DNA of 64,000 nt, taken from positions 420,697-484,696 of the forward strand of contig JAOPTR010000016.1 in assembly GCA_051531935.1 (NCBI GenBank), in the 5' to 3' direction. This document shows, piece after piece, positions 7,144 to 63,093 of this stretch (position 1 is its first letter; each line of letters starts with the position of its first letter). The DNA is from Hyphomicrobiales bacterium. Lineage in GTDB: Bacteria > Pseudomonadota > Alphaproteobacteria > Rhizobiales > OSC116. Made by a program: the position numbers and the translations under genes. The notes beneath the pieces were generated by a model. It had not been told where the DNA came from. It did not search any database and worked only from the letters and a program-made list of their open reading frames with translations.

Positions 7144-7199
7144 TGTATGTTAACATACAACTCACGGTAATTATCAATCTATCAGTTGACTTGTCAACT
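7144..7199. promoter_or_regulatory. Two palindromic operator candidates upstream of the TRAP operon
   Basis: Perfect 16-bp palindrome tgtatgttaacataca (7144-7159) and 7-2-7 palindrome agttgac-tt-gtcaact (7184-7199). They lie 83-138 bp upstream of the dctP-like start. Confidence 0.35.
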
Positions 7200-8004: not shown

Positions 8005-8030
8005 CGGCTGAAGATGCTTAAAAGTTATGT

Positions 8031-8069
8031 TCCCGCAGAGAATTTAAAATTATCTGCGGGATATTTTTT
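8031..8069 (+). terminator. Rho-independent terminator after the marR-like gene
   Basis: tcccgcaga / tctgcggga forms a 9-bp stem followed by atttttta. Confidence 0.55.
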
Positions 8070-8913: not shown

Positions 8914-8915
8914 GA

Positions 8916-9272: not shown

Positions 9273-9290
9273 ATTTTCCTCCTAGTTTCA

Positions 9291-10178: not shown

Positions 10179-10194
10179 TTTGTTTTGCCCTAAT

Positions 10195-11944: not shown

Positions 11945-11952
11945 AAGGCACC

Positions 11953-12963: not shown

Positions 12964-13116
12964 TATTTAGAGCCTTCATATAATTTTAAAATATTTTCAT
13001 ACTATTGAGCGAAATTTGTTTTTTAACAATTCAATTTTCATGCAAAAGGTATTGATTTTTGAGAATGAGGACATATAATATGTTTGAATTTCCACATCCA
13101 ATTTACATAGTTTAAC

Positions 13117-14331: not shown

Positions 14332-14428
14332 GGAATGCTATTCAAATAATGAATATTAAATCTATTTAATTGAATGATAAAGCGAATGGGTTCCGTGATA
14401 ACTTATCTCAAACGGAGGCATTCTGAAC

Positions 14429-15307: not shown

Positions 15308-15317
15308 AGGAAAAGTT

Positions 15318-16262
15318 ATGAGAATTTGTGTTGCTGGAGCATATGGTGCTTTTGGAATAAAACATTTAGATGCACTAAACGCCATTGAAAATGTGACGGT
15401 TACTTCGGTGGTTGGACATAATGCAGAGCGCATTCAGGCCTTAGCTGATGAACGTAAAATTGGGCATGCTTCAACCAGTTTATCTGAGGCCTTGGCAAGA
15501 GATGATGTTGATGGCGTTATTTTGGCCACACCAACACAAATGCATGCCGAGCAAGCGATTGCGTGCATGCGTGCAGGCAAGCATGTTATGGTCGAAATTC
15601 CGATGGCTGACAATATTAAAGACAGCCAAATGCTTGTAGATGTACAAGCTGAAACTGGTTTGGTAGCAATGGCAGGACACACAAGACGCTTTAACCCGAG
15701 CCATCAATGGATACACAATAAAATTATGGCTGGTGAGCTTAAGATTCAGCAAATGGATGTTCAGACATATTTCTTCCGCCGCACCAATACCAACGCAAAA
15801 GGTCAAGCAAGATCTTGGACAGACCATCTATTATGGCATCATGCTTGTCACACCGTGGATTTATTTCAATATCAGACTGGAGAAAATGCGTCTCAATTGC
15901 AAGCGATGCAAGGGCCGATCCATCCTGAACTTGGTATTGCAATGGATATGAGTATTGGCATGAAAACACCAAGCGCAGCATTATGCACTCTCTCACTATC
16001 ATTTAACAATGACGGGCCTTTTGGGACGTTTTTTAGGTATATATGCGACAATGGCACCTACTTAGCACGTTATGATGAGCTATATGATGGGAATGAACAA
16101 CCAATTGATTTGTCTGATGTTGATGTTTCTATGAACGGAATTGAACTACAGGACAGAGAATTTATCAATGCTGTGCTCGAAGGGCGAGAACCAAATTCAA
16201 GTGTTAAGCAGTGTTTCGAAGCCATGGTTACACTTGATAAATTAGAAAAATGCCTGAACTAA
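15318..16262 (+). CDS. ligC: 4-carboxy-2-hydroxymuconate-6-semialdehyde dehydrogenase (Gfo/Idh/MocA family)
   Basis: 314 aa. N-terminal Rossmann motif MRICVAGAYGAFG, Gfo/Idh/MocA-like sequence, LigC-like size and context. Confidence 0.75.
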   Translation: MRICVAGAYGAFGIKHLDALNAIENVTVTSVVGHNAERIQALADERKIGHASTSLSEALARDDVDGVILATPTQMHAEQAIACMRAGKHVMVEIPMADNIKDSQMLVDVQAETGLVAMAGHTRRFNPSHQWIHNKIMAGELKIQQMDVQTYFFRRTNTNAKGQARSWTDHLLWHHACHTVDLFQYQTGENASQLQAMQGPIHPELGIAMDMSIGMKTPSAALCTLSLSFNNDGPFGTFFRYICDNGTYLARYDELYDGNEQPIDLSDVDVSMNGIELQDREFINAVLEGREPNSSVKQCFEAMVTLDKLEKCLN

Positions 16263-16294
16263 GGCGTAGTTGAAATACTGAATTCCCAAGAAAT

Positions 16295-16324
16295 AAGGGG
16301 TGCTTTAAATCTAAAGCACCCCTT
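16295..16324. terminator. Bidirectional terminator-like hairpin between convergent ligC and pobA
   Basis: Perfect 13-bp stem aaggggtgcttta / taaagcacccctt with loop aatc. The flanks are A/T-rich but the U tracts are weak. Confidence 0.55.
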
Positions 16325-16355
16325 AATATATTATACTTCTACAAATTCAATCTAT

Positions 16356-17537
16356 CTAATATGGCAGACCAATATAATTTTCGGCCAGGGATTTCATGGC
16401 GGCTTTTGAACTGAAAATATAATCAAGTTCGGCTTTTTGCATTTGAGTTGAGAAAGCACCTGTTTCGCCATCAGCATTTGGTAATTCATGCATTAAAGAA
16501 GTCATCCACCAAGAAAAGCGCTCAGCTTTCCACACACGGCTAAGTGCTTTTTCAGTGTATTCTTCTAGGCCAGTTGAATCGCCATTTTTATAATGTTTTA
16601 TCAATCCTTGCGACAAATAATAAACATCGGATGCTGCCGAGTTTAGGCCTTTCGCACCTGTTGGCGGCACAATATGTGCTGCATCACCCACCAAAAACAT
16701 ATTACCAAACCGCATTGTTTCACAAACAAAACTACGCAAAGGTGCGATGGATTTTTCAATTGAGGGACCAGTAATTAAATTCTCTGCCACTTTTTTGGGT
16801 AGGCGTGATTTAAGCTCCTCCCAAAATCGGTTATCTGGCCAATCTTCAATAGTGTCAGATAACGGCACTTGAATATAATATCTACTCAAGTTTTGATGGC
16901 GCATACTGCACAGCGAAAAACCTTTTTCGTGTTTTGTATATATCAATTCTGGCGACACTGGTGGGGTTTCCGATAAGATTCCGAGCCAACCAAATGGATA
17001 GACTTTTTCGTAAGTTTTAATAATGTCATCAGGGATTTGTTTGCGACTTGCGCCATGGAAACCATCACAACCAGCTACAAAATCGCATTCAATTTTGTTC
17101 TCAACACCATCTTTTGTGTAGTAGATTACGGGGCTATCAGTCCCAATACCTTCGACACGAGTCACTTCTGCTTCTTCAATAATAGTTGTGCCAGCTTTTT
17201 TATGGATATTTATCAAATCACGGGTAATTTCCACTTGGCCATAAACCATAACACCAGTGCCCGTTAATTCTTTCAAATTCACATGATGGCATTTTCCGTC
17301 GTAAGCGATATCAAAACCGTCATGCATTTCGCCATCTGCATCCATTTGTTCGGCGGCTTCAGCGTCGCGCAATAAATCGACACAACTCTGCTCCAAAACG
17401 CCGGCTCGAATTCTGGTCAATACATAATCAAGCGTCTTGCGCTCTAATATTACACTTTCAATACCTTGCAAACGCAATAATTGCGACAAAATAAGCCCTG
17501 ATGGGCCACTACCAATTATACCGACTTGTGTTTTCAT
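16356..17537 (-). CDS. pobA: 4-hydroxybenzoate 3-monooxygenase
   Basis: MKTQVGIIGSGPSGL FAD-binding motif, 393 aa, PobA-like throughout. Confidence 0.92.
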   Translation of the reverse strand: MKTQVGIIGSGPSGLILSQLLRLQGIESVILERKTLDYVLTRIRAGVLEQSCVDLLRDAEAAEQMDADGEMHDGFDIAYDGKCHHVNLKELTGTGVMVYGQVEITRDLINIHKKAGTTIIEEAEVTRVEGIGTDSPVIYYTKDGVENKIECDFVAGCDGFHGASRKQIPDDIIKTYEKVYPFGWLGILSETPPVSPELIYTKHEKGFSLCSMRHQNLSRYYIQVPLSDTIEDWPDNRFWEELKSRLPKKVAENLITGPSIEKSIAPLRSFVCETMRFGNMFLVGDAAHIVPPTGAKGLNSAASDVYYLSQGLIKHYKNGDSTGLEEYTEKALSRVWKAERFSWWMTSLMHELPNADGETGAFSTQMQKAELDYIFSSKAAMKSLAENYIGLPY

Positions 17538-17651
17538 AAATTATTTCCCTTTTAATTCAACTCCAAGATAAGGAAAACATGGAATTAATAAATAGACATA
17601 TTTTGCAAATAATTGTATATATGGAACATATTTTAAGTCAGAAATTAGAAC

Positions 17652-18527
17652 ATGAGTGATATTCCAAATTACATTTTGTATGGTGAAGAAGAAAAGGAAA
17701 TCTTTCCCGATTTTCTACATATAGAGCCAATCCATTCTCGAAGCATTCATCACGGCTGGAATTTTCGCTCTCATCAGCATCATAATCTACATCAATTTTT
17801 CTACATTTTAGGCGGGAAAGGGCGCATATTTATTGATAAAATTGAATATGAATTAGCTACTGACCAAGTTATAAGTTTACCGCCTAGTACCATTCACGGT
17901 TTTAAATTTTCGCCCGATATTGAGGGGTGGGTTGTGACATTGCCACAAATTCATTTGCAAAAGATTATCGAAAACACGGCTTTTTTTATTAAACCCATAT
18001 CTCAAATCCTCATCCATAATTGCATAAACAATACCATTAAGGATGAATTTAGATATATATTCAGGACCTTAAATGATACGTTTAACAATACCCATCCAAC
18101 TCGAGATTTCAGGCTTAAATGCTATGCAAATTTGTTGATTGATAAGGTGACTGAAATATCGCCTTATTCTAAAGACATAAACCGAAAAGTGCCAAAACAA
18201 AAACAAGTTTTGGTTCAAGAATTTCAAAATAAAATTAATGAAAACTACAAGCAAAAGCTAACGGTAAAACAATATGCCGCAATGATGAGAATAAGCCCTA
18301 CTCATTTGAATAGAGTCTGTAAATCAGTATTGAATTTGTCTGCATCTGATCTTGCGAATGAAAGATCTATTTTGGAATCTAAACGCTTATTAAGCTATAC
18401 CGCGATGAATATATCGGAGATTGCATATGAGTTAGGTTTTTGTGACGCAGCGCATTTTTCTACGTTTTTTTCAAACAAAACATCACAAAAACCTTCTGAT
18501 TTTCGCAAAAGTTCATTGACGCAATAG
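17652..18527 (+). CDS. pobR: AraC-family regulator (PobR type), divergent from pobA
   Basis: Cupin-like N-terminus and a C-terminal AraC double HTH (ISEIAYELGFCDAAHFSTFF). Confidence 0.75.
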   Translation: MSDIPNYILYGEEEKEIFPDFLHIEPIHSRSIHHGWNFRSHQHHNLHQFFYILGGKGRIFIDKIEYELATDQVISLPPSTIHGFKFSPDIEGWVVTLPQIHLQKIIENTAFFIKPISQILIHNCINNTIKDEFRYIFRTLNDTFNNTHPTRDFRLKCYANLLIDKVTEISPYSKDINRKVPKQKQVLVQEFQNKINENYKQKLTVKQYAAMMRISPTHLNRVCKSVLNLSASDLANERSILESKRLLSYTAMNISEIAYELGFCDAAHFSTFFSNKTSQKPSDFRKSSLTQ

Positions 18528-50125: not shown

Positions 50126-50299
50126 TTATCGTTTTCGCCATTCTTTTATGGCAATCAATATGCGTATTGCCGTCAAAACCAAAGTAAACATCACCAAAAC
50201 AAGCCCAAGCCAATTCTCCACTTCGCCAAATATGGAAGCGTAACTCACAAAGCCGCCACCCGCAATCGTACTCACATCTATAAAACTTCTCTCAACCAT
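50126..50299 (-). CDS. Unlisted 57-codon ORF: single-pass membrane protein with a basic C-terminus
   Basis: ATG at 50299, TAA at 50128-50126 (below the track cutoff). Product MVERSFIDVSTIAGGGFVSYASIFGEVENWLGLVLVMFTLVLTAIRILIAIKEWRKR. Starts 15 nt after the DUF2793 stop on the same strand. Confidence 0.3.
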   Translation of the reverse strand: MVERSFIDVSTIAGGGFVSYASIFGEVENWLGLVLVMFTLVLTAIRILIAIKEWRKR

Positions 50300-50314: not shown

Positions 50315-51133
50315 TTATAGTTTCCAAATTTCTATTTTGCAATTTATAGACGGCCCCTCGCCTGCCTGCCCAAAACGCCAATTATCCGCAGTTCCCACTT
50401 CAACATGGTGCATTAAAGAAAATTCATGGTCAGCATCTGTCACGTTCAGTTCACCCTCGCCAACCGATCTTGTTAAAGCCGCAGTAGAAGTAACTCCAGC
50501 TTCAGAATATTCACATGAACCCTCAATTAAGTGTTGGCTGCTATTTATGTTCTTCAAATCTACTTTATGTTTACCAACCTGTACGGCCGCACTCATAATT
50601 TTCACCCAATAGTTACCAATAGGCAATTTAAACTTGCTAGCTGCTTGGTCAAATACCATTCCTGCACCCAGTTCGTTTATTTTCAAGGCGTTCAAATATC
50701 TCAAATTCCAACCCGTCACTGGCGGATTTGTCGAAACTTGCCCATATCCCATCTCTTCACAAACCAACACATCAGGCTTAAAATAATTTTTCCTATTCGC
50801 ATAGGTTTGCCAATTCGGCCCTTCAAAAACCATAAGCTTCTGTTCATCAACAACCCAACACAACCACCCCGTCTTTGCGGTTAGTATTTTCCAGGCATCA
50901 TCCTGATAAAAAGCTATTTTTCCATCTTGCCCAAACCAATCTCCAGTCGCGCCATTTGCAATAATATAAGCATCACCATTATTTGGTGCCACTGGCATCA
51001 CCTCCAAATCTGCTGTCAATACAGCAAGCTGCACCACAACGTCTAAGCGGTTCAAACTTTCATTCATGGTCAAATGCTTCTGATTTTGCGACGCAGCCAA
51101 AAACGGCAATTCTAAAAAATAACTATTAGACAT
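50315..51133 (-). CDS. DUF2793-domain protein (GTA-associated, follows g15)
   Basis: MSNSYFLELPFLAASQNQKHLTMNESLNRLDVVVQLAV matches the DUF2793 N-terminal pattern. The ATG at 51133 overlaps the g15 stop by 8 nt. Confidence 0.75.
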   Translation of the reverse strand: MSNSYFLELPFLAASQNQKHLTMNESLNRLDVVVQLAVLTADLEVMPVAPNNGDAYIIANGATGDWFGQDGKIAFYQDDAWKILTAKTGWLCWVVDEQKLMVFEGPNWQTYANRKNYFKPDVLVCEEMGYGQVSTNPPVTGWNLRYLNALKINELGAGMVFDQAASKFKLPIGNYWVKIMSAAVQVGKHKVDLKNINSSQHLIEGSCEYSEAGVTSTAALTRSVGEGELNVTDADHEFSLMHHVEVGTADNWRFGQAGEGPSINCKIEIWKL

Positions 51134-54100
51134 GTATTTCAACTTCCTTTTCAGTGCCACGCCCAACCAGCGCCGACATTTGGTATATTTTCAATTTAAA
51201 ATCCTGTGCCAAACCACCAAAATCCGCAATCTGATCTGCTTCGCTGTATATAAATTCGGGGTTGTTGCAATCAAATTGCCGCAATGCCACCCCACCATTT
51301 AGCGGCCATATTTCAACTTCATAGGCTTCAATTTGTTCGTTCAGCTGCACTTGCGCAATTGCCCAATTCTCGCCACCATGCCGTGTCTGTCTTATCCAAC
51401 TAACCTCAAGCGTATTTGCGTTTTTCAGAGCTTTCACATGAACAGGTGCAAACGGTTTCAAGGCCACTGGGTCATGCTGCCATTGCGCAGTTTGGTAGCT
51501 TTCATGCTCAAGGTTTTTACTCGACAAACCATATTTAACGTCTATCAGTGCAAACATTTCCTCTGCATTTAAATCAAAGCTTTGTACGGCTTCATTCAAA
51601 ATTACAAATCTCGACAATGCCGAAGTTTGCGTCTTCATGGCTGAAGCAGAACCATATTTCCCACGCACTAAATACGATATTTCAAACAGATTCTCCGAAA
51701 CCATCTCTGCATTCTTAAACTGAATAATCTCCCACTCACCACCGTCATTCCCAATAACAGCTAAATTTTTTCCTGCCATTAATTCGGCTTCGGATATAGA
51801 TGATATTTCCCCTGCATATAGTCTGACAACAATTTTATTGGCGTGGTCAATCCGATCAATGACACCTGCATTAAAAACAGTTTCAATATGTCCGATCACA
51901 GCTCTTTGCTTCACCACCGCACGTTTTATATAACTGCCACCTACATCCTGGAACAGGCTCATTTCTCCGCCCCACGGCTTCACAAATGCGGCAAATAAAA
52001 CTCTTTTCTCCGCACTTACAACATTCGTATCAGTTGCTAATATTGGCAAGTTCAAAGGTTCAAATAGCGCTTGTCCATGTGGCGGTTTGGTTTCAAATAA
52101 CCCAGTTTTTAAATCTCGCTCAATCAGTCGATTCATGCCAATGGCAAAATCTGCTGAAACAGCTTCAATTTTTTGCTTCAATCCAGTTTCAACGGTTTTG
52201 ACCCGCCAGTTGCCATTCAAATCAGAAGCTTTATTTGCCATATTCAATGAAAATACATCACCAGATTCAAGAAAACCAAATTCGGCACCCACAGTGACGC
52301 TAAGTATTTTATTCTGACCACGGCTCGCCTTCAATCTATCAGATACCAATTTAGCAGCATATGATTGCGATAAAACGGCAGGTAGTTGATAAAACTCATC
52401 AAATCTATATTCACTCACGCCATCATCGCTCAATTCACTTGTTACACGGCTCGAATAACTGCCATCATCACTTATGTATTTCAAATGTGCATCACTCACC
52501 ACACCCAAATCATCCGCGCGGTACAGGTCTGGCAATTTCGTGTCAGCCAAATGCTCATCTAAAATGCTCACCACCGCGTCGCTGTCTTGATGTTTGAAAA
52601 TCAAAATATCATCTCGAATAAAAGCTAATAGTCCAAAATTTTGCAAAATATTTTGTAGAATTTCTATTGGGCTTTGCAATTTATCAATTAAATAACCTTC
52701 AACTTGTCCAACAATTTCCGTTACATCAACCTGCATTCCGCTGGTAAATTCAACAATTAATTTATCCAAGGGAACCATGCCCAAGCGCCCATTAAGCCAA
52801 TGCCCATAATTCCAATTATCGCCATCGGCCCAGACGTCTTTTAACAATGGAAAAGCAGGGTAAGGTCGGGCATCATAGGCCCAAATATATGCATTTTTGG
52901 TATCCAACATTCTACCGCCATACACACTAGAAATCGGATTATTAACACCGTCATTCTGGTAATATTCCAAAAGCACTTCTAAATACCGCCGCTGTATCAC
53001 ATCATCACGGTTATCATTTGAGTGATAAGGTATTTTTCCTTCCGATGAAGCAGGGTCGTAAAATACATTCGGCTGATTGCTGCCCTTGTCAATCGCAGGG
53101 CAGCCAATTTCAGTCAGCCAAATGGGTTTGGATTCTGCCACCCATGACGTCGATGTCGCCACTTCCACACCATCAATTCGGTTATAATGTGGGTTGCCCC
53201 ACCATTGCTTAATGTCTTTGGTTCTAAATACCCAATGCTTACCATAAGCCGTATCATCAATCGGGGTTCTTATCTGCGCATCTCGTGCATTTTGGCTAGC
53301 ATAATAATAATCATACCCCTCGCCTGCACCAATATTCCCTCGCAAATAATCGCGTTGGTATATATGAGATGCGCCATTCACTTGGTCTAAATGTTCAGGC
53401 TCGTCTCGCCAATCTGATAATGGCCAATAAGCATCAATTCCAACAAAATCAATATTGTTATGCCCCCATAAATCATCTAAATGGAAAAATATATCGCCCG
53501 TACCGTCTTGCGGATGATGCCCAAAATATTCACTCCAATCCGCACCATATGAAATTTTTGCCAATGGTAACGCTTGTGCAACCTCATCAGCCAAATTTAT
53601 TAGTTGGTCAATGGCAGGAAAATGCGTACGGCTGTCTCTCACAGTGGTTATGCCTATTAATTCCGAGCCCAATAAAAACCCGTTCACACCACCTGCCAAT
53701 TTACACAATTTCGCATAATGCAAAATCATCCGCCTATATCCCCAATCACCAGAACCATAATATAAAACCAAATTTTGATAAATGCGTATGTCTGTGGTGG
53801 GGCAGTCGCCAAAAAAATTGGCAATTTGGCTTGTGGCTGCCGCTGTCTTATCAGGGCTGCTGGCTTGACCAATAGCAGGGTGGCAGGTAATTCGCCCTCG
53901 CCATGGGTAAATCGGTTGGTCAGTGCCACCTTGCGGGTTGGGCAAATTATTCGCGGCAGGCACGTCCATAAGAATAAAAGGGTAAAAAACAACTTCAATG
54001 CCGCGGCGTTTAAACTCAGCAATGGCCGCTAATACCGAATCGTCCGAAGGCGTACCGCCAAATGCAGCATGCCCATCAATTTGCGACACAAGCGCTGCAG

Positions 54101-54872
54101 TGCTACGAATAACTCCATTCACCATCCATTGCTCAGGGCTGGTATTCTTTTGAGCGTTGTCAACTCGTGGGGCAATTTTAATGTGCGATGCACGCAAATC
54201 GTCGCCAAACCAAGGCACAATTAGAGAGATTTTCTGCAAATTCGGGCAAATATTGCACAATTCATCAATTGACGCGACAAAATCCGTCTCTCCCGTAAAT
54301 CCATGCTGGTTTTCAGGAAAAAACTCATAATTGCTTTCTCTCACAATTGAAACAGTATGATAACCAAATTCCGTCGCACCAGGAATCACAGCCACGGCTT
54401 GCACCTGTTTCTCAAGCTCACCAGTTGCATTAATAACTTCAAACGAAAATTTCGGTACCATATTGCCAAAAGGCTCTAAGTGTAAATCTTCAAAAATTAC
54501 ATAGGCAACATCTCTAAATGCAGGGGCTTTTCCCACACCAAATATGTTTTCCAATAAAGGGTCAGCAATTTGGTCGGCACTGCCTTTATAATAGCGCCAA
54601 TTTATGTCAGTCATATCTTGCAAGCTATCATTCACCCACATTTTCGAAATATGGTCTATTTCACCTTCACAAAGCGCAATGGCAAAGCTCAAACTAAATC
54701 CTGCACCAATCTGATCGTCTTTCTTAGTGGGCTGTACAATTTTAAATTCATCGGCCCAGATCACTTGGCCTGCAATCCTCATTCTGCCTAATATTTTTGG
54801 TATCGGCACGGCTTGCTCACTGGTTTGCACAATTGGTGGGTTGTCCAAACTAAAAACATCAATTTTCACCAT
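51126..54872 (-). CDS. GTA g15-like host-specificity / distal tail protein (TIM-barrel-like domain)
   Basis: 1248 aa, including GGTPSDDSVLAAIAEFKRRGIEVVFYPFILMDV and downstream regions typical of the g15 family. Confidence 0.88.
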   Translation of the reverse strand: MVKIDVFSLDNPPIVQTSEQAVPIPKILGRMRIAGQVIWADEFKIVQPTKKDDQIGAGFSLSFAIALCEGEIDHISKMWVNDSLQDMTDINWRYYKGSADQIADPLLENIFGVGKAPAFRDVAYVIFEDLHLEPFGNMVPKFSFEVINATGELEKQVQAVAVIPGATEFGYHTVSIVRESNYEFFPENQHGFTGETDFVASIDELCNICPNLQKISLIVPWFGDDLRASHIKIAPRVDNAQKNTSPEQWMVNGVIRSTAALVSQIDGHAAFGGTPSDDSVLAAIAEFKRRGIEVVFYPFILMDVPAANNLPNPQGGTDQPIYPWRGRITCHPAIGQASSPDKTAAATSQIANFFGDCPTTDIRIYQNLVLYYGSGDWGYRRMILHYAKLCKLAGGVNGFLLGSELIGITTVRDSRTHFPAIDQLINLADEVAQALPLAKISYGADWSEYFGHHPQDGTGDIFFHLDDLWGHNNIDFVGIDAYWPLSDWRDEPEHLDQVNGASHIYQRDYLRGNIGAGEGYDYYYASQNARDAQIRTPIDDTAYGKHWVFRTKDIKQWWGNPHYNRIDGVEVATSTSWVAESKPIWLTEIGCPAIDKGSNQPNVFYDPASSEGKIPYHSNDNRDDVIQRRYLEVLLEYYQNDGVNNPISSVYGGRMLDTKNAYIWAYDARPYPAFPLLKDVWADGDNWNYGHWLNGRLGMVPLDKLIVEFTSGMQVDVTEIVGQVEGYLIDKLQSPIEILQNILQNFGLLAFIRDDILIFKHQDSDAVVSILDEHLADTKLPDLYRADDLGVVSDAHLKYISDDGSYSSRVTSELSDDGVSEYRFDEFYQLPAVLSQSYAAKLVSDRLKASRGQNKILSVTVGAEFGFLESGDVFSLNMANKASDLNGNWRVKTVETGLKQKIEAVSADFAIGMNRLIERDLKTGLFETKPPHGQALFEPLNLPILATDTNVVSAEKRVLFAAFVKPWGGEMSLFQDVGGSYIKRAVVKQRAVIGHIETVFNAGVIDRIDHANKIVVRLYAGEISSISEAELMAGKNLAVIGNDGGEWEIIQFKNAEMVSENLFEISYLVRGKYGSASAMKTQTSALSRFVILNEAVQSFDLNAEEMFALIDVKYGLSSKNLEHESYQTAQWQHDPVALKPFAPVHVKALKNANTLEVSWIRQTRHGGENWAIAQVQLNEQIEAYEVEIWPLNGGVALRQFDCNNPEFIYSEADQIADFGGLAQDFKLKIYQMSALVGRGTEKEVEIHV

Positions 54873-54889
54873 AATTACCTCATTCTATT

Positions 54890-55354
54890 TTATGAACATT
54901 TACCATCAATATTGGCGTCATTCGGCCAAGAATAGCTGCCAAATAAATGCCGTTCCCACCAAGCCGAATAACTATTCTCCACTACCCCACGCCCAACATA
55001 AGCGTGGATGAATGTCTCGCTCGAAACTGCGATTGCAATATGTCGAGAAGGCAAATTCAACCTGTATCTGAATAATAATATGTCACCTGTTTTAATCGGT
55101 GCCATTTGTGCTTTACGCTTAAAATATTTATCTGCCATATCTGCCAATAAATCAGTCTCAGCAGCCTCGTTCCATCTAGGCGCGTATGGCGGAATCATTT
55201 CAGGTTCGACACCATATAAATCTCGCCAAACACCGCGCACCAAACCAAGGCAGTCACAGCCAACATGCTTCAAACTCGCCTGATGTTGGTAGGGCGTCGC
55301 TAACCACTGCTTTGCAGCAACAATCACCTTTTTACCAATTTCAGCTTTGGTCAT
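54890..55354 (-). CDS. GTA g14-like NlpC/P60 cell-wall peptidase
   Basis: GCDCLGLVRGVWRDLYG (catalytic Cys), HIAIAVS...FIHAY (His); 154 aa. Confidence 0.85.
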   Translation of the reverse strand: MTKAEIGKKVIVAAKQWLATPYQHQASLKHVGCDCLGLVRGVWRDLYGVEPEMIPPYAPRWNEAAETDLLADMADKYFKRKAQMAPIKTGDILLFRYRLNLPSRHIAIAVSSETFIHAYVGRGVVENSYSAWWERHLFGSYSWPNDANIDGKCS

Positions 55355-56232
55355 TCTTCAAGCAATGTATGTTGTGGGTAAGCAAATCTAAAATTCTTAC
55401 CGGGCATATGGCTAAAACCTCTAAACTGTGTGCCATTGCTAAATTTGTTCGCGCAAGTGTCAAAGCTTTTGTCGCACCCCATTTTAAGCTTCATTTGGTC
55501 GTTTAGCTTAATTTCAAATTTTATATTCTGCTGCAGTTCAATCAAATGTTGCCCATTTGATTGCTTATATTGCCGTTCAATTTTATACCGCACTTCGTTT
55601 ATACTTGCGTTGTCACCCGTTTGCCATTCAAGGTAACCATGCTCAAAATAACCGTTTATAATGTTAGCAGGCAAAGCAACTCCAAAAGCATGAGTTGATG
55701 CAAGTTCGCTCACATAGCCTGCTGCGTTATATATCGCCAATTCGGCATTGATTTTGCATCTGTCATCTGCAAATTTCGCATCACATCTTTCTTGTAACAA
55801 TCGCCCATATTTGTTGTTCAACGGTGCGGTTAATCCACGCATTTCAAGTTTTACTTCAACACCTGAGAATGTAACACCCCCAACAAAACCTTTTTTAATC
55901 AAAGCAAATTCAGACAAATTATGCCAATTCACATGATAAAGATCAAACTTAGCATTTTTCAAGAAACCAGATTGAACCAAAGACTGACTCAACATATTTT
56001 CATTCATACAAGTCGAAAGCATAAAGGCATCTAGGCTTAAATTTAATGTGCTTTTCGCAGGTTCAATCTCTAACCGATCATCGGGTAAATATTGCAGCCC
56101 GTTAAATTCAAGAATGCGGTCATGGTCGGTAACCAGAATCATCTCCGCATCATTGTAAATTTTTAAACATTTACAAACTTGTGTCACATTCAATGATAAA
56201 TGCTGTTGCCATTCAGGCGCTAAATTTTTCAT
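55351..56232 (-). CDS. GTA g13-like protein (DUF2163 / BR0599 family)
   Basis: VTQVCKCLKIYNDAEMILVTDHDRILEFNGLQYLP fits the DUF2163 N-terminal signature; 293 aa. Confidence 0.85.
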   Translation of the reverse strand: MKNLAPEWQQHLSLNVTQVCKCLKIYNDAEMILVTDHDRILEFNGLQYLPDDRLEIEPAKSTLNLSLDAFMLSTCMNENMLSQSLVQSGFLKNAKFDLYHVNWHNLSEFALIKKGFVGGVTFSGVEVKLEMRGLTAPLNNKYGRLLQERCDAKFADDRCKINAELAIYNAAGYVSELASTHAFGVALPANIINGYFEHGYLEWQTGDNASINEVRYKIERQYKQSNGQHLIELQQNIKFEIKLNDQMKLKMGCDKSFDTCANKFSNGTQFRGFSHMPGKNFRFAYPQHTLLEE

Positions 56233-56241: not shown

Positions 56242-56892
56242 TCAATCTAAAATTTCTAATAACGGAATATTGGTTATTTCACCCGCCTTAACTGCAGTAT
56301 AATCAACCTTCAATTCTATCTGCGCAAACCTCACAGCCACATCAAATTCATAACCAGCGGTAATTTCATCACCAAGTGTCAATCCTGCAGAGGGCAAAAT
56401 CGTCACCAAACCCGTCAAAGGCGCCACCCAAAATAAACTAGAATTCAGCTCAACACCATCCACCGCCACAAGCAGTGTATTGGCTTTAGGTTTGGTAATT
56501 TTACGAATGTAATTTTGCTCATCATTTGTCGGCTCACCATAGGTTTTCACCAGTTGAAATTCCAAACTCGTAGCATCAAAAATACCAATTTTCTGGTCAA
56601 AGGCCGATATTCCCAAACCTATTTCAGATGATTTATGGTCCAAAATATCATGCCATCTAAACCCAATCAAAGCCCCTCTTCGAGCCTCATAAAAATCAGT
56701 AAGCCTTGCCAACTCATCAAATGATTTTGCTTTTACCGCAACTTCATATCGGCGTTTAGAATGGTATTTTCGGGCATTGCGCTGTTCCCTGCCCGATAGA
56801 AAATTCTGAATTTCAGTTTGTCGCTCAATGCTCTTGCTGGCACTAACCCCCAAATGTGGGGGAAATAATATATCATGGAAATCATCAATCAT
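56242..56892 (-). CDS. GTA g12-like protein (DUF2460 family)
   Basis: MIDDFHDILFPPHLGVSASKSIERQTEIQNFLSGREQRNARKYHSKRRYEV parallels the g12 N-terminus. AAGGAGG SD lies 8 nt upstream of the ATG at 56892. Confidence 0.82.
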   Translation of the reverse strand: MIDDFHDILFPPHLGVSASKSIERQTEIQNFLSGREQRNARKYHSKRRYEVAVKAKSFDELARLTDFYEARRGALIGFRWHDILDHKSSEIGLGISAFDQKIGIFDATSLEFQLVKTYGEPTNDEQNYIRKITKPKANTLLVAVDGVELNSSLFWVAPLTGLVTILPSAGLTLGDEITAGYEFDVAVRFAQIELKVDYTAVKAGEITNIPLLEILD

Positions 56893-56893
56893 T

Positions 56894-57310
56894 TCATACC
56901 CCTCCTTCAACGAGAAACTTCATTTCCATTCGGCCTTTAACGTGCCCAAAATCAACTTGTTCAATTTGAGTGGCGATAAGCTCACTAGAAATCAGTGCAA
57001 ACCCATCGCTCAAATTCACTTCAGGTGCAAACCCATCAAAAACGCGTTCCATCGTCGCCATTATATTATGAGTGGTTAGGCTCGAATCGGCCTTTGCCAC
57101 AATCACAAATTCAACCCGATGTTCAGTCACTTCTTCATCCAACACATGCAGCAACTTGCTGCTAATATTGTCATAGCTAATGTAAGGCAAAACGGCACTT
57201 TCCTGCACAATGTCATAAAACCTCACAACATCCATTATGGTTGCTAAATCCGCGTTGGCAGTAATTTCAGTGTATAAATATGCCTTTAACTGCACCAATC
57301 CCAACATCAT
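56894..57310 (-). CDS. GTA g8-like protein (DUF3168, tail-completion type)
   Basis: 138 aa. The pattern (LKAYLYTEITANADLATIM...VRFYDIV...LPYISY...EFVIVAK) is DUF3168-like and unlike TP901-1-type major tail proteins. Confidence 0.7.
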   Translation of the reverse strand: MMLGLVQLKAYLYTEITANADLATIMDVVRFYDIVQESAVLPYISYDNISSKLLHVLDEEVTEHRVEFVIVAKADSSLTTHNIMATMERVFDGFAPEVNLSDGFALISSELIATQIEQVDFGHVKGRMEMKFLVEGGV

Positions 57311-57657
57311 TCACCCTCACTTTTTAGCGCTAAAACCCTCAACCATAAATCAGCTTCATCCAAATTCTGAACCGACTGAATTTCATAAAACTCATCATTA
57401 AATTTCAGCTGCATTTGCTTGCGGACACCCGTAAAATATCGCAAATGAACCATAATTTCAGTTTTATCCTGGCTAACTTGACCACTCATAGATTGCCGTT
57501 CAGTTTTAAGCTCAACCCGCGCCCAACGTTCCGCAAATAATATTTTATTGGTAACTTCACCACCAATAATGTCAGGCGAAACAGCAATATTATATATTGC
57601 AACTCGTTGGGTTAATTGCCCAAAATCAACACCATATTTTCTCAATTTAAAACTCAT
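57307..57657 (-). CDS. GTA g7-like head-tail adaptor (head closure, SPP1 gp16-like)
   Basis: LTQRVAIY...WARVE...FYEIQSV pattern. The start taken at the ATG at 57657 lies 1 nt after the g6 stop. Confidence 0.78.
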   Translation of the reverse strand: MSFKLRKYGVDFGQLTQRVAIYNIAVSPDIIGGEVTNKILFAERWARVELKTERQSMSGQVSQDKTEIMVHLRYFTGVRKQMQLKFNDEFYEIQSVQNLDEADLWLRVLALKSEGE

Positions 57658-57658: not shown

Positions 57659-58237
57659 TTATGCCAATCGCGGATGTTGCTGTTTAAATGGTGCAATCAT
57701 GTCCAAAACCATAAGTGGAATTTGATGAATCTCACCAGATGCAATCGGGCCGCGGTTTTCATACCAAAATGCCACCAAATGCATAATAGCCTGCAATATA
57801 GGCGCGGGGACATCTTGTGGCGCTGCGCCATACCCCGCCCAAAATTGAACTCGAATTCCCGAATACTCACTGCCTATACTAGGCAAGTTTTGTGTCACTT
57901 TTAACAATGCAGGTTCAACTTTAACGTTGTAAATATAACCATCAATAGATAGGTCATTATATATCCCATCCACATCAATCACAGCCAAGCTTTCAACCGA
58001 TATAACAGGGTTTAGCGGCAACTTAATTTCACAATCAAACGGCAAAACATCTAAATAAATCGACCAAAATTGCCTCAACAAAGCGCGGCTTAAACGTGTT
58101 TCAAGTTGCACACGTGCAGCGGTAATCATAGAGGCAATCAGCACATCTTCTATGTTATTTTCAATCTTTAAATAGTTTTTCACTTCGTTTAAAGTTACGG
58201 GTTCACCCACCGCAGCTGTTTCTAAAATCAACGCCAT
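57659..58237 (-). CDS. GTA g6-like head-tail connector (gp6 family)
   Basis: VTLNEVKNYLKIENNIEDVLIASMITAARVQLETRLSRALLRQFW. The start taken at the ATG at 58237 has AAGGA 8 nt upstream. Confidence 0.8.
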   Translation of the reverse strand: MALILETAAVGEPVTLNEVKNYLKIENNIEDVLIASMITAARVQLETRLSRALLRQFWSIYLDVLPFDCEIKLPLNPVISVESLAVIDVDGIYNDLSIDGYIYNVKVEPALLKVTQNLPSIGSEYSGIRVQFWAGYGAAPQDVPAPILQAIMHLVAFWYENRGPIASGEIHQIPLMVLDMIAPFKQQHPRLA

Positions 58238-58304
58238 AATGTCCATCCTTATTGGTAACAAAAAGGGCGCTCCATCCAGAACGCCCCACCTATTTCAGCT
58301 CAAT

Positions 58305-59609
58305 TTACGCCGAGAATTTCAAAAGTTTAATGGCGTTAAAGTCATGCACACCACCACCAACACGCTTGGTTGTGTAAAATAGCAAATATGGTTTTGCCGA
58401 ATATGGATCACGCAAAATACTAATGCCACGACGGTCAACAATCAAATAACCACGGCCAAAATCACCAAATGCAAGTGATGTGCTGTCCGTCGTGATGTCA
58501 GGCATTTGTTCAACTTCGGCAATGCTGTAATTCAATAAAGATGCCTTGCCGTTCACCGTCTCCGCAGGGCGCCACATATAATTGCCATCCGCATCTTTTA
58601 GCTTTCTAATTTCGGCCTGAGTTTTGCGGTTCATCACCCAATGGCTGTTCACTCGATAACGCGCTTTAAGGCTGTAAATAAGGTCAAGCAAACAATCCGA
58701 TGCATCAGTCGCGGCAAAACCGCCATCAGCCCCTGTTTCAACAAACCCCAAATTGCCCCAAGACCAATTGTTTTCCGCAATGGTCGGCACATCTAAAAAG
58801 CCCTTTGGCTTATTCACGCCATCGCCATTCACAAAGGCTTCGGTTTCTTGATCAACAAATGCCGCTTCAATTTCCGTGGCAATCCATTGTTCCAAATTCA
58901 CAGCACTATCTTCAAGTAAAGATGCAGAAGCCGCAGGCATGGCGTATAATTCCATGGTGGGGTAAATCAATTCTTCTAAATCAGCACCGCTGGTTTGTGG
59001 TCGCGCATCACTGTCACCTACCCAACCAGATGCAAAATCATTAATCGCAAATGGCTTCTTATAAATGCTTGATGTCACCTGTTGAATGCCCGCAATGTCA
59101 CGAATAGGTGAAGCCAATTTTAAATTGTCTAAAATATTGCTTTCAATTTGCTCAGGCACAAAATAACCACCATCATTGCCAGATACTAGGCTGTAGGCTT
59201 TGCCTTCCATAGTTTCAATCTGGCTTGCACCTTTACGCATATATGCGTTAAATGCCGCCTTAGATTCACTATTTTCAGTCATTTGTGTAAGCGGCGACAT
59301 TTCACCGCCCAATAATGGACGTTTAGATTTATGCCCTAGCATATCCATTTTGCTTTGTTGCTTGTCCAAATGCGCATTAATCTTATTCAGCTTTTGTTCA
59401 ATCAGTGGGTCTGCACCCTGTTGCGTTTCAATGCGGCCTAAACGTTGGTCATTGGTATGTTTAAACTCCTCAAACGCATTCATAAAATCATCAAACACTG
59501 CATTCACGTCAGTGTTGTTTTTTTGGCTTACAACTTTTGTTTCCAAGTTAATATCTCCATTTTTGCTGTGTTTTTTGTTGTATTTGGGCGTGTTTTTTAA
59601 GGCCATCAA
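58305..59609 (-). CDS. HK97-family major capsid protein (GTA g5-like)
   Basis: 434 aa. N-terminal coiled-coil delta-like region followed by an HK97 MCP-like body. Confidence 0.9.
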   Translation of the reverse strand: MMALKNTPKYNKKHSKNGDINLETKVVSQKNNTDVNAVFDDFMNAFEEFKHTNDQRLGRIETQQGADPLIEQKLNKINAHLDKQQSKMDMLGHKSKRPLLGGEMSPLTQMTENSESKAAFNAYMRKGASQIETMEGKAYSLVSGNDGGYFVPEQIESNILDNLKLASPIRDIAGIQQVTSSIYKKPFAINDFASGWVGDSDARPQTSGADLEELIYPTMELYAMPAASASLLEDSAVNLEQWIATEIEAAFVDQETEAFVNGDGVNKPKGFLDVPTIAENNWSWGNLGFVETGADGGFAATDASDCLLDLIYSLKARYRVNSHWVMNRKTQAEIRKLKDADGNYMWRPAETVNGKASLLNYSIAEVEQMPDITTDSTSLAFGDFGRGYLIVDRRGISILRDPYSAKPYLLFYTTKRVGGGVHDFNAIKLLKFSA

Positions 59610-59643: not shown

Positions 59644-60180
59644 TTATGCGCGCATGGCGTTAGAAGCGCGCAAAATGCGCTGCTTCAAATCTGCCTCTGG
59701 TTGTTCAGTTGTCGGTAATTCTCGGTCGGCAGGCTGCTCTATTCGCGCAGCAGGCCCCTCTATTCGCGCAGCAGGCCCCTCTATTCGCGCAGCAGGCTGC
59801 ATGGGAAAAGTCACAACAGATATTTCCCAAAGGTCAACTTCATGGATATACCGTGTCGATTCCCGCGCCCTTTGCACCGCACGGCGGGTTTTGAAACCTA
59901 TCGAAAGCCCATCAATCACATTGTCAGCAATTAAATTGGCAACATCCAACGCTTGTCGCACTGCAATAGATAGGCGGCCAACCACATAAAGGCCTTTTTC
60001 ATCTACCTTAAATTCTTCCCAGCGGCCAATCGGTAAATTCGGGTCATGTTGCCACAACATACTAATGTCTTGCGGCTTTTTTTCACTAAGGCTTCTTTCA
60101 AAAGCCGATGGCATAACCACATCATTGCCTAAATCTATTTCATTAAAAATACAGGCATATCCCGAAAATAAATCATTCAT
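59644..60180 (-). CDS. HK97-family prohead protease (GTA g4-like) with a C-terminal heptapeptide repeat
   Basis: FSGYACIFNEIDLGNDVVMPSAF...MLWQHD...IGRW and LSIGF motifs. The ATG at 60180 overlaps the portal stop by 8 nt. Confidence 0.88.
   Translation of the reverse strand: MNDLFSGYACIFNEIDLGNDVVMPSAFERSLSEKKPQDISMLWQHDPNLPIGRWEEFKVDEKGLYVVGRLSIAVRQALDVANLIADNVIDGLSIGFKTRRAVQRARESTRYIHEVDLWEISVVTFPMQPAARIEGPAARIEGPAARIEQPADRELPTTEQPEADLKQRILRASNAMRA
59730..59801. repeat. 21-bp tandem repeat, about 3.4 copies, in frame inside the protease gene
   Basis: ctattcgcgcagcaggcccct occurs at 59739-59759 and 59760-59780 (identical). A third copy at 59781-59801 matches its first 17 nt, and there is a partial leading copy. 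It encodes PAARIEG x3. Confidence 0.9.
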
Positions 60181-61405
60181 CTTCAGCCATCCCTTGGTCA
60201 GTAAAATCCTCATTCTGGCCTAAAGCGGGGTATCCAACAGCAGCACGTTTTTCGTCAGTGGTTAAAAAACTGGCCGCACCAATGCGTCGCCACAATGCTT
60301 CGCGCTCGGTGCTTAGCCCTTCGATCTTATCCAGATCAATTTTCAATTCCAACTGAGCGTCCCAAGCAGGGCTAAGCCATGCCGATATATTTTTGGTAAA
60401 TCTTCCCACCAAGGGTAAAATTGTCTGGCGTAAAAAACTACGGTTGGCTTCCTGATAATTCGCAAACCTATTGTCACCAGGTATCCCAAGCAACATAGGC
60501 GGTATGCCAAGCGCCAAAGCTATTTCACGTGCCGCAACATTTTTGGCCTCAATAAAGTCCATGTCCTTAGGGCTAAATCCCATTGCTGACCAATCAAGCC
60601 CACCCTCCAAAATCATCGGCCTACCTGCGTTAGCATGGCCTTGGTAGGTCTGCTCAAGCTCTTGTTTCAAACGGGTAAATTGCTCATCCGATAGGTTTCC
60701 TTGGCCTTCTTGGCCACGGTAAACCACGGCACCAGATGGCCGCGCACTGTTATTAAGCAGCGATTTATTCCATTTACTCGCCGCATTATGAATATCAATT
60801 GCAATTTTCGCGGCTTTAAAGGGGCTTTGTCCATAATGATCATCATTAGGGTTGTAAAAAGTCTGATGTAAAATCGGCGAAATACCATCAGTTTGTTGGC
60901 TAAAACGCAGTTTTTGCGAACCAATTTTATAATCATAAAACTCAGGCCATCCTTGTTCATCAAGCAATACCCGCACTCGGTCAGGGCGTAAGCTATAAAG
61001 CTGGTCAGGCACATCATTTTCTAAAGACGATTGCTTTAAATAGCAGTTACCATCTATCAACAATTGGCTGTAGCAATTCTCCAAAAATTCATGCCCACTT
61101 GCATTCATGTTAGGGCGCGATAACAATTCTAATAATGGATGTTCAACCAATTCTTGATCATTCAAAAACAACTGCAAATGTATAGATGCTGCAGCTTCCG
61201 CAATCATCCGCACCGCGCGGTGAGCAATTGGGTTTTGCGTATAAGCATGACGCGCCATTGCCGCTATGGCCACATCATCAGTAAAATCACCATTCATTAA
61301 AAAGCCAAATTCTTGCCCATATTGGGTCAAAGGCACATAATTTTTACGTTCTTTCGGCTTCGCTTCGGTTTTCAGGCCGAGTTTTATCCGTTGAAGAAAT
61401 GACAT
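60173..61405 (-). CDS. HK97-family portal protein (GTA g3-like)
   Basis: About 410 aa, portal-like sequence. The start taken at the ATG at 61405 has GAAGGGG upstream. Confidence 0.88.
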   Translation of the reverse strand: MSFLQRIKLGLKTEAKPKERKNYVPLTQYGQEFGFLMNGDFTDDVAIAAMARHAYTQNPIAHRAVRMIAEAAASIHLQLFLNDQELVEHPLLELLSRPNMNASGHEFLENCYSQLLIDGNCYLKQSSLENDVPDQLYSLRPDRVRVLLDEQGWPEFYDYKIGSQKLRFSQQTDGISPILHQTFYNPNDDHYGQSPFKAAKIAIDIHNAASKWNKSLLNNSARPSGAVVYRGQEGQGNLSDEQFTRLKQELEQTYQGHANAGRPMILEGGLDWSAMGFSPKDMDFIEAKNVAAREIALALGIPPMLLGIPGDNRFANYQEANRSFLRQTILPLVGRFTKNISAWLSPAWDAQLELKIDLDKIEGLSTEREALWRRIGAASFLTTDEKRAAVGYPALGQNEDFTDQGMAEDE

Positions 61406-61439
61406 ATTTCCCCTTCCCATTTCTGTTCTCATTTAAATT

Positions 61440-62825
61440 CTATAAATCCCGAATGCGCGGCACCATATCAGCACCATTCAACAACAAGTGACTTACCGCC
61501 CAAACCAAAGCATCCACCCGATCAGGGCTATTTTTCGAACTGGCAATCATATGGTCAAATTGGCACATTTCATCTTCTAGAGGCTCAAACAACCCCAAAT
61601 GATGCACTTTGCTTTGCTCATATAACGCCGCCACAGGTTCCGCACGCGTCTTTTTGTCTTTGCGTGCAAACACAGCAGCATATGATATTTGCGGGTCAAT
61701 TGTGCGCAATATAGTCTCGACCATTTCACCGCCTTGGTTCACTTCTGCAACAATGCGGTCAACGTTAAATCGATGGTATATTTCAATCGCCTTTTGCGCC
61801 CAAATAATCGGGCTTGCCGCCTGCATGGTAACATCTGCCAATATATAAGCATGCCGATCACCATCCATTGCTGCCACAATCATCCCGCAAGCGTTAGATT
61901 TTTTATGGCTCGTCGCAGGCGGGTCAATCGCCAAAACAATGCGCTTAAATTCATCTAACGCATAATCTTTTACCCGTCGTCTGGTGTCTTCAATCAGCCG
62001 ATAATTCCATAACGCACCTTGCCTATCTTCAATAATTTCGCCAAATAATTCCTGCCGCCCTAAATTGGTTCCCGCATAATTTCGGTCTATATTTTGCAAA
62101 AAGGCTGCTGCCAAATGTTGCCTATTGTCAAAGGTCGATGCCTTGCTCACATAACTACCATCCATCGCCAAAATATCTTTTAATTTCTTTCGATTACGCG
62201 GTGTCGTGGTCAATACAACCTGCGGTGCATCTCCTAGGCGCATGCCAAACTGCAACATATCCCATACATCTTCGTCATAAGGCCATTTGGCAAATTCGTC
62301 ACACCAAGCAGCATGAAATTGCGGGCCTCTCAAACTTTCTGGCTCTTCGGCACTAAACAATTGCGCAATCGCGCCATTTGGCCATTCAAGCCGTTTGCGA
62401 GAGGCAATATATGTAGGGCGTTGGTGTTTGGGGTGAATGTTCAACAACCCGCTATCACCTTCAAGCATCACCTCGCGAACATCGCTAAATGTTTCGCCAA
62501 TCAGGGCTATTCGCCATGCAGGTTCTTTTGCAAATGGCTCAATCCCAAGTGCTTTCGCTCTAATCCATTCAGCACCCGCTCTGGTTTTCCCTGCGCCACG
62601 TCCACCTAACAATATCCAATTTTGCCAGTTTTTAGCGTATAATGGGCTGTTAGACGGTTGTAAATTGGGCGGCAATTGGTCATCTCTGGCCCATAAATAC
62701 CAATCAAAATATAACTGTTCTGCTTCCTTGTCGTTTAATGTAGATGCAAATTCTTCAATTTGCTTTGGGGTTAATCGCCGCAAGTTTTTGCGTAATTTCG
62801 TCTCGGAATTTAGGGTCCGTTTCAT
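61440..62825 (-). CDS. Terminase large subunit (GTA g2-like)
   Basis: WILLGGRGAGKTRAGAEW Walker A, followed by an ATPase and nuclease body; 461 aa. Confidence 0.9.
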   Translation of the reverse strand: MKRTLNSETKLRKNLRRLTPKQIEEFASTLNDKEAEQLYFDWYLWARDDQLPPNLQPSNSPLYAKNWQNWILLGGRGAGKTRAGAEWIRAKALGIEPFAKEPAWRIALIGETFSDVREVMLEGDSGLLNIHPKHQRPTYIASRKRLEWPNGAIAQLFSAEEPESLRGPQFHAAWCDEFAKWPYDEDVWDMLQFGMRLGDAPQVVLTTTPRNRKKLKDILAMDGSYVSKASTFDNRQHLAAAFLQNIDRNYAGTNLGRQELFGEIIEDRQGALWNYRLIEDTRRRVKDYALDEFKRIVLAIDPPATSHKKSNACGMIVAAMDGDRHAYILADVTMQAASPIIWAQKAIEIYHRFNVDRIVAEVNQGGEMVETILRTIDPQISYAAVFARKDKKTRAEPVAALYEQSKVHHLGLFEPLEDEMCQFDHMIASSKNSPDRVDALVWAVSHLLLNGADMVPRIRDL

Positions 62826-63039
62826 AAATAGCTTCTGGCTCGCTTTGTTTTAATGTCTCTTCATGTTCTGCCGATTGCATGTTGCGTATATTTTCTAAAG
62901 CCTTAATCACAACCGTTAAGGTCTTGGCTTGTTTTTCGCAAAAAGCTAAATCAGCTTGCTGTTCCGTTTTGGCTAAAAGCGTCATAATTTTCATTAATTG
63001 GCGTTCAAGCTTTTTTAAAATTTGCTGATGTTTATTCAT
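62755..63039 (-). CDS. GTA g1-like small coiled-coil protein (candidate small terminase)
   Basis: Lies upstream of TerL, has coiled-coil sequence and a C-terminal DPKFRDEITQKLAAI. Start taken at the ATG at 63039, because the longer start sits in the terminator T-tract. Overlaps g2 by 71 nt. Confidence 0.5.
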   Translation of the reverse strand: MNKHQQILKKLERQLMKIMTLLAKTEQQADLAFCEKQAKTLTVVIKALENIRNMQSAEHEETLKQSEPEAIYETDPKFRDEITQKLAAINPKAN

Positions 63040-63093
63040 AATGACGTCGGCCTCATATTGTCGTTGACCATCACATTTGTCGTAAAGCATTGG

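Follow-up and report, generated by a model that had tools for sequence, protein, structure and literature searches.

In RcGTA, the gene transfer agent (GTA) of Rhodobacter capsulatus, a common fold is found in the stopper g7, the terminator g8, the tube protein g9 (five discs) and the distal tail protein g12, all of which form hexamers stacked on one another, and a trimer of the tape measure occupies the lumen of the tube and of g12 (PMC7296036). RcGTA particles without the tape measure were also observed, and g14, which is needed for tail formation, is thought to reside in the tail lumen (PMC7296036). Here we describe an RcGTA-type cluster in a stretch of 64,000 nt (the window) from Hyphomicrobiales bacterium (GCA_051531935.1, contig JAOPTR010000016.1, positions 420,697-484,696 of the forward strand), in which the tube gene g9, the chaperone genes g10 and g10.1 and the tape-measure gene g11 are absent between g8 and g12, the two genes being separated by a gap of 1 nt. 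Our analysis suggests that this is probably a vertically inherited cluster whose tail has been reduced stepwise and then maintained, and which would specify a short-tailed particle with neither tube nor tape measure.

The window shares with RcGTA the gene families and order of g2-g8 and g12-g15, a g15 with GTA_TIM and Rcc01698_C, and the cysteines of the hub. It differs in lacking g9, g10, g10.1 and g11, the g15 residues equivalent to 1-46 and the C-terminal tail of g4, and in having a DUF2793 gene inside the cluster. The predicted tail is shorter than that of RcGTA by five tube discs, or ~19 nm (38.3 Å pitch, PMC7296036). Siphophages of the phiJL001 type with an RcGTA-like baseplate (L106, L113, L115 and L127; L-numbers denote loci compared with the window) likewise encode a DUF2460 distal tail protein and, after it, a hub homologous to g13. 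Unlike the window, however, they carry a tape-measure-like open reading frame (ORF) of ~860-1,100 aa immediately upstream of the distal tail protein.

Reduction of a GTA tail is already known from the Rickettsiales. Rickettsiales and Holosporaceae endosymbionts keep the capsid, portal, distal tail, hub and megatron genes, the other tail parts being unidentified there (George et al. 2022, PMC9254644). Purifying selection has been reported for the Rickettsiales gene sets, and Holosporaceae retain mainly head genes (PMC9254644). In contrast to the cluster described here, these genes lie in scattered small clusters of host-restricted bacteria with reduced genomes, their tail genes are under relaxed selection (0.2-0.9), and divergence beyond detection is possible (PMC9254644). 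The closest named relatives of the window are metagenome-assembled genomes (MAGs) that carry the label OCS116 cluster, Alphaproteobacteria or Hyphomicrobiales. Members of the OCS116 cluster are marine Alphaproteobacteria and differ from the Rickettsiales in having one contiguous GTA cluster, exact gene joints, living intermediates, a canonical sister at the same locus and a low ratio of nonsynonymous to synonymous substitution rates (dN/dS) in the tail genes. Many large clusters are also known to miss some genes (Shakya et al., PMC5721377). In the literature we found no description of a tail-less or split RcGTA cluster in OCS116, Parvibaculales or related groups; what is new here is the contiguous marine cluster with its exact joints, intermediates, canonical sister and a linked deletion in g15.

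The joint between g8 and g12

An earlier, sequence-only reading of this stretch had placed g8 directly before g12 in a translationally coupled joint, with neither room nor gene debris for g9-g11 between them. The features concerned are the following.

56894..57310, minus strand: g8, predicted tail terminator, 138 aa (PF11367, 27.1 bits against a cut-off of 24.5)
56890..56907, minus strand: g8/g12 joint (AAGGAGG at 56907-56901, TGA at 56896-56894, one base, ATG at 56892-56890)
56242..56892, minus strand: g12, distal tail protein, 216 aa (DUF2460, E 2e-59)

Direct reading of the minus strand (...GTT GAA GGA GGG GTA TGA A ATG ATT GAT...) confirmed all the coordinates of the joint. A single spacer base is present at 56893, and AAGGAGG is located inside the last codons of g8, 8 nt upstream of the g12 ATG. 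No promoter-like or terminator-like signal stands out at this place. The same direct passage from g8 to g12 is found in at least five diverged lineages (window, L001-L006, L011-L016 and L018), including the NCBI MAGs NORP83, NORP94, NORP194 and DT_99. Across lineages near synonymous saturation, the joint is conserved as a spacer of 1-3 nt or an ATGA overlap, with a G-rich, Shine-Dalgarno-like 3' end of g8. The window-type joint consists of GG-x-stop followed by the 1-3 nt spacer, and that of L018 is an ATGA overlap like the g8/g9 overlap of the intermediates described below. Because the joint recurs in independent Logan, ENA and NCBI assemblies, it is not a matter of chance or an assembly quirk. 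Its conservation among near-saturated lineages, together with low dN/dS in g12-g15, agrees with the earlier view of a maintained, translationally coupled joint rather than a fresh deletion.

Profile comparison identifies the 138-aa ORF upstream of the joint as g8, the tail terminator. The g8 profile of the clade was matched to canonical g8 by hhalign at 97.8% (E 7e-13, 133 columns) and to g9 at 0.2%, and over its whole length the ORF is collinear with g8 of L009 and L017, where a true g9 comes next. The profile of g8 and its orthologues retrieved Rcc01690, the RcGTA tail terminator, as its sole PDB match, which is weak (E 0.35). The single sequence of g8 gave no match in PDB and none in PHROGs, and its AlphaFold model, made from a single sequence without alignment, was too poor to be judged for the two N-terminal helices of the terminator fold (predicted local distance difference test score, pLDDT, 48.5). 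It could be argued that the ORF is a diverged tube protein or a g8/g9 chimera, and that a tube is present after all, since terminator and tube have a common fold (PMC7296036) and the PF11367 match is barely over its threshold. However, the hhalign values and the end-to-end alignment speak for g8, and the g9 profile does not match the ORF. We regard a tube protein at this position, which the sequence-only reading had named as the finding that would overturn it, as hardly credible. A chimera made of the N-terminus of g8 and the C-terminus of g9 was considered separately and is ruled out by the full-length alignment with g8 of the intermediates.

The search for the missing module covered the six-frame translation of the 64-kb window and the ±10 kb flanks of the relatives (~20 kb around the cluster). 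No match was obtained in either, whether with a hidden Markov model (HMM) of g9 built from 120 sequences or with phmmer queries of g10, g10.1 and g11 taken from L007, the nearest canonical relative. The absence of g9-g11 without room or debris is thus borne out by the 1-nt gap and by these searches.

Relatives and the order of loss

Three arrangements are found at a common chromosomal site, with genes for a penicillin-binding protein and a CxxCxxCC protein upstream and for a response regulator and a kinase downstream. The first is the direct passage from g8 to g12. In the second, intermediate arrangement (L009/L019 and L017), g8 is followed by g9 and g12, which lie 7-11 nt apart, and g10, g10.1 and g11 are absent. 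The third is the canonical g8-g9-g10-g10.1-g11-g12, which L007 has at this site and which all remaining loci show as well. Among the 97 outgroup loci with enough sequence upstream of g12, 93 have g9-g10-g10.1-g11-g12 and four are siphophages with a tape-measure-like ORF of ~860-1,100 aa before g12; neither the direct joint nor the intermediate arrangement occurs in any of them (0/97). Seven IMG/VR loci that had been classed automatically as intermediate-like were canonical on inspection, the classification being an artefact of long stop-to-stop ORFs in GC-rich DNA, and the four other loci flagged automatically were the siphophages. L007 also carries, between g7 and g8, an extra 95-aa ORF (L007:7570-7857) with no family match, which is absent from the clade and from the other canonical loci.

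Loci with the direct joint and with the intermediate arrangement form a monophyletic clade with 100% neighbour-joining bootstrap. Because the clade is monophyletic, the chaperone and tape-measure genes (g10, g10.1 and g11) were lost first and once, and the tube gene g9 was lost later. The placement of L018 conflicts among genes, as it groups with the intermediates by g5, g12 and g8 (55-93%) and with the direct-joint loci by g15 and g3 (79-99%).

Loss is not confined to whole genes. In every clade locus that includes the start of g15, 28 residues separate the initial Met from the GRxRxxGxxIW motif, whereas all 66 non-clade g15 proteins (66/66) have at least 62 residues before it (median 70-71). 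The missing part of ~42 residues is hydrophobic and Gly/Ala-rich (MATLVLQAAGA...G...G...AAGA...). Upstream of the g15 ATG of the window the frame stays open for only four codons, and g14 ends 18 nt before the ATG. The segment corresponding to Rcc01698 residues 1-46, which a full-length megatron possesses, is missing from g15 of the window. Residues 1-46 of Rcc01698 were described by Bardy et al. as the iris/penetration domain (PMC7296036), and the structural assignment of the megatron N-terminus has recently been revised (preprint 10.64898/2026.07.19.739414). Judged from its sequence, g15 of the clade is without an equivalent of residues 1-46 under either assignment. In addition, alignment reveals that g4 of the whole clade lacks the C-terminal tail of ~50 residues (REFExWLxxDAGLSR...) of canonical GTA proteases. 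A tandem repeat near the C-terminus of g4 in the window (59729-59797; 21 nt x 3.3, 95% identity, Tandem Repeats Finder) encodes PAARIEG three times.

The proteins on either side of the lost parts have also diverged. Among canonical clusters, identity is 64% for g9 and 64% for the capsid protein, while g9 of the intermediates is 29% identical to canonical g9 and their capsid protein 52%. Identity of g8 falls from 40% within the canonical set to 18-21% in comparison with the clade. Divergence of g8 and g9 on the clade stem is about twice that of the capsid protein, and by this measure the proteins of the affected interface are those that changed fastest on the branch of the tape-measure loss. 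The g9 retained by the intermediates has a pN/pS of 0.37; because this is like the values of its neighbours g8 (0.38) and g12 (0.45), g9 seems to be functional without a tape measure.

The sequence-only reading had also raised the possibility that the tube, tape-measure and chaperone module was relocated. It is conceivable that the genome carries g9-g11 at another place, whether relocated or taken from a prophage or from a second GTA-like locus, and that the tail is normal. RcGTA itself spreads fibres, spikes and lysis functions over several loci. Its head spikes and tail fibres are mentioned in a preprint (10.64898/2026.07.19.739414). Furthermore, our inspection extended over the window and the flanks given above, and the 7,763 g9 homologues of the database were not filterable by genome. 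However, no relocated module was seen in the window or the flanks, and no OCS116 name is present among the 120 g9 matches listed. A profile of the intermediates' g9 found only its two query proteins among 5.8 billion proteins, in which the direct-joint genomes are well represented; it gave no match in the JGI metagenomes, where the g12 profile of the clade also gave none. (A genome-contig collection scanned with g12 8-mers gave no match, and apparently does not hold the window's own genome.) A block move would not leave g9 in place in two sister lineages that have lost g10-g11, and because g9 is in place where g10-g11 are gone, stepwise loss in place is favoured over a move of the module. Since the loss of the g15 hydrophobic N-terminus and the fast divergence of g8 and g9 coincide on one branch, a real remodelling of the tail is suggested. 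Relocation of the module is, on this evidence, distinctly improbable.

The remaining cluster genes and their selection

Besides g8 and g12, the minus strand of the window carries, in this order, g1-like, g2-g7, g13-g15 and the DUF2793 gene.

62755..63090, minus strand: g1-like small ORF, 111 aa, candidate small terminase, overlapping the start of g2
61440..62825, minus strand: g2, large terminase (Terminase_6N E 1e-32, Terminase_6C E 3e-21)
60173..61432, minus strand: g3, portal (Phage_portal E 2e-83)
59644..60213, minus strand: g4, prohead protease (Peptidase_S78 E 5e-31)
58305..59609, minus strand: g5, major capsid protein (Phage_capsid E 4e-81)
58264..58287, minus strand: terminator-like hairpin in the gap between the capsid gene and g6 (10-bp stem, 6 GC pairs, T run; a consensus match only)
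57659..58237, minus strand: g6, gp6-like head-tail adaptor (Phage_connect_1 E 2e-10; gene call from L001)
57307..57657, minus strand: g7, stopper or head completion protein (Phage_HCP E 8e-11)
55351..56232, minus strand: g13, baseplate hub (PF09931 E 3e-32, PF09356 E 6e-21)
54890..55354, minus strand: g14, NlpC/P60 cell-wall peptidase (NLPC_P60 E 1e-8)
51126..54872, minus strand: g15, megatron, 1248 aa (GTA_TIM E 7e-138, Rcc01698_C, Phage-tail_3)
50315..51133, minus strand: DUF2793 gene, candidate fibre or spike (DUF2793 E 2e-29), overlapping the end of g15
50126..50299, minus strand: 57-aa membrane protein, holin-like (Gly-rich segment and one transmembrane helix)

Pfam searches thus recover the RcGTA order for the terminase, portal, protease, capsid, adaptor, stopper and terminator homologues, and the GTA-type baseplate set is complete, with the DUF2460 distal tail protein, the hub, the NlpC/P60 peptidase and a megatron containing GTA_TIM and Rcc01698_C. 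Comparison of g12 with the solved RcGTA distal tail protein Rcc01695 (6TBA_6B) gives E 9e-37, with residues 5-214 aligned to residues 3-208. In the alignment of the hub g13, the four cysteines of the CDA...RC and GCDK...C motifs are conserved. The hub is without its middle domain (~75 residues) in L018 (10658-11305) and, independently, in L043 (Maricaulis maris), with the cysteine motifs retained in both. The g1-like ORF, without a match in Pfam and PHROG searches, has a 94-aa homologue at the same place in L006.

Between L002 and L005, both of which have the direct joint (dS 0.45-1.3), dN/dS is 0.06 for g3, 0.05 for g5, 0.24 for g8, 0.10 for g12, 0.14 for g13, 0.18 for g14, 0.10 for g15 and 0.05 for the DUF2793 gene. 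In g12-g15 the values therefore range from 0.10 to 0.18, and relaxed selection is not seen. The 11-12 cluster genes are all full length in the window, L002, L005, L011 and L015. The earlier statement that every other gene is intact holds as far as full-length genes and low dN/dS are concerned; it does not hold for the N-terminal ~42 residues of g15 and the canonical C-terminal tail of g4. The terminase genes of L002 (4080-5504) and L005 (4081-5505) are near-identical (dS 0.014, 100% amino acid identity), set against dS of 0.45-1.3 in the rest of the cluster, which suggests recent recombination within the GTA cluster.

These data also bear on the possibility that the locus is a decaying GTA remnant, in which a recent deletion is followed by drift of the rest. 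Two loci would fit such a process. In L016 (7026-7418; MAG NORP194, contig NVQL02000038.1), ~70 N-terminal residues of g4 are fused in frame to the ~60 C-terminal residues of g8 in one ORF, with deletion of g5, g6 and g7, and in L017 (2294-3539), an intermediate-type MAG contig, the portal gene is split over two frames by a frameshift or an assembly error. NORP194 also has an intact cluster on another contig (L014), and the L016 fusion could represent population heterogeneity, ongoing loss or a chimeric bin. However, the joint is common to lineages with saturated synonymous divergence, the 1248-codon g15 is open in every lineage, and the full-length genes with dN/dS of 0.05-0.24 refute a decaying remnant, which we consider very improbable.

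The hairpin at 58264-58287 is the strongest terminator-like signal on the cluster strand, and may attenuate transcription so as to give an excess of capsid protein. The DUF2793 gene is present in every clade locus extending past g15, and for the 13 canonical loci tabulated phmmer gave no match to it within ~5-10 kb downstream of g15. Its product may be a fibre or spike, and the gene may have been brought into the cluster. The DUF2793 gene is followed by the gene for a conserved membrane protein of 57-60 aa in every direct-joint or intermediate locus whose sequence extends far enough (L002:16574-16756; translations from five lineages), and this protein gave no match in PHROGs or any other family. 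The idea that the 57-aa ORF is a relocated megatron N-terminus is unsupported, as canonical L007 combines a full g15 with small membrane ORFs at the same place.

The cluster occupies a syntenic chromosomal site and has no integrase, replication or lysogeny genes close to it. It shares its flanking genes with canonical L007, and its neighbours in the window are host genes, as is found for a vertically inherited chromosomal locus. The other ORFs of the window belong, by Pfam and PHROGs, to the host and include a TRAP transporter, a LigAB aromatic cleavage pathway, aconitase, Ccm cytochrome c maturation, GlnE and two-component systems; the few unannotated ORFs gave no phage-family match in these searches. 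The region 4061-18527 holds the TRAP transporter (DctPQM) and a LigAB-type protocatechuate 4,5-cleavage set with LysR, MarR and AraC regulators, which is ordinary host catabolism.

The putative particle and its meaning

Gene content, the joint and its age, purifying selection and the order of losses directly support the reading of a cluster whose tail was reduced stepwise and then maintained; what we infer is the stacking of g8 on g12 and continued DNA transfer by the particle. On the clade stem, g10/g10.1, g11 and the hydrophobic N-terminal ~42 residues of g15 were lost. Loss of the tube gene g9 followed, and g8 now abuts g12 and is translationally coupled to it. Removal of the g9 discs would leave g8 facing g12 in a paralogous ring-on-ring contact. 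Such stacking is plausible given the common fold of g7, g8, g9 and g12, which in RcGTA form a stack of hexamers, and the tight coupling of the two genes fits equimolar co-production of their proteins. The neck rings of the DNA-filled head would plug straight onto the g12 ring of the baseplate, and the particle would be built in the order portal, adaptor g6, stopper g7, terminator g8, g12, hub g13, peptidase g14, megatron g15 and DUF2793 protein. A neck and stub of three rings (g7, g8 and g12) would thus be combined with a complete baseplate (g13, g14, g15 and the DUF2793 protein). The tail would be very short, like that of a podovirus, and its lumen would be unplugged. As the g14 peptidase is retained, the periplasm may still be the target.

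The likeness to podovirus-type phages such as P22, T7 and phi29, in which the head is connected to a host-recognition device via a few stacked rings without a tape measure, is functional and concerns the expected outcome only. Unlike in podoviruses, the parts encoded in the window are a siphovirus-type gp6-like adaptor, stopper, terminator, distal tail protein (Dit) and hub. Pfam revealed no homologues of the podovirus adaptor, nozzle, needle or knob among the tail-side ORFs, all of which belong to siphovirus/GTA families, with no extra ORFs.

Several points weigh against such a particle. In those siphophages that have been studied, tail assembly does not start without the tape measure, and the tape measure or the megatron N-terminus has been proposed to plug the channel and to cross the outer membrane. 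A particle without these two parts would have no obvious DNA gate or membrane-penetrating part. The particle is predicted here from its genes, and g9-g11 supplied by a distant locus or a prophage beyond the searched stretches could still exist. The fusion in L016 deletes the capsid gene, and some populations may therefore be losing the element. The tube gene g9 may have been lost once or twice, given the conflicting position of L018.

It is also possible that the head and baseplate genes are maintained without forming one DNA-delivering particle. For example, tail-less, DNA-filled heads might be freed by lysis while g12-g15 and the DUF2793 protein serve in adhesion or in cell-wall or polysaccharide hydrolysis; alternatively, the particle might have a role other than transfer. 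The clade is without every known lumen-filling or plugging and membrane-inserting element (tape measure and megatron N-terminus), the head genes are more constrained than the tail genes by dN/dS, and comparable sets of head and baseplate genes whose function is unknown have been reported in Rickettsiales (PMC9254644). However, g8 is tightly coupled to g12, the joint shows no promoter or terminator signal that would split the operon, g14 is kept with dN/dS of 0.18, and the neck genes g6-g8, whose only known role is to join head and tail, are retained. We therefore consider such a split of functions unlikely, and the tube-less, short-tailed particle remains the preferred reading. In its strongest form, a working GTA of a free-living marine lineage whose siphovirus-type tail was turned into a stub without tube and tape measure by successive precise deletions, with living intermediates that have a tube gene but no tape measure, it is an open contender, somewhat short of probable.

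For starting and sizing non-contractile tails the tape measure is considered indispensable, and in RcGTA it is considered part of the DNA gate as well. The clade has nevertheless discarded the tape measure, the tube and the megatron N-terminus, while its neck and baseplate genes are still under purifying selection over a long divergence. It defines a minimal parts list for a GTA, and the stages found at a single locus (canonical, tube without tape measure, no tube) would allow tests of how long tails can be lost. It also makes the role of the megatron N-terminus open to comparative study, and has a bearing on estimates of GTA-mediated exchange among marine bacteria and on GTA detection tools whose score depends on gene count. 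If the proposed particle is real, the clade would represent a natural and datable transition from a siphovirus-like to a podovirus-like tail, in which a Dit-hub-megatron baseplate can assemble, dock on the terminator ring and deliver DNA without a tape measure. The co-occurring losses would then link the unexplained hydrophobic N-terminus of the megatron and the tape measure in function.

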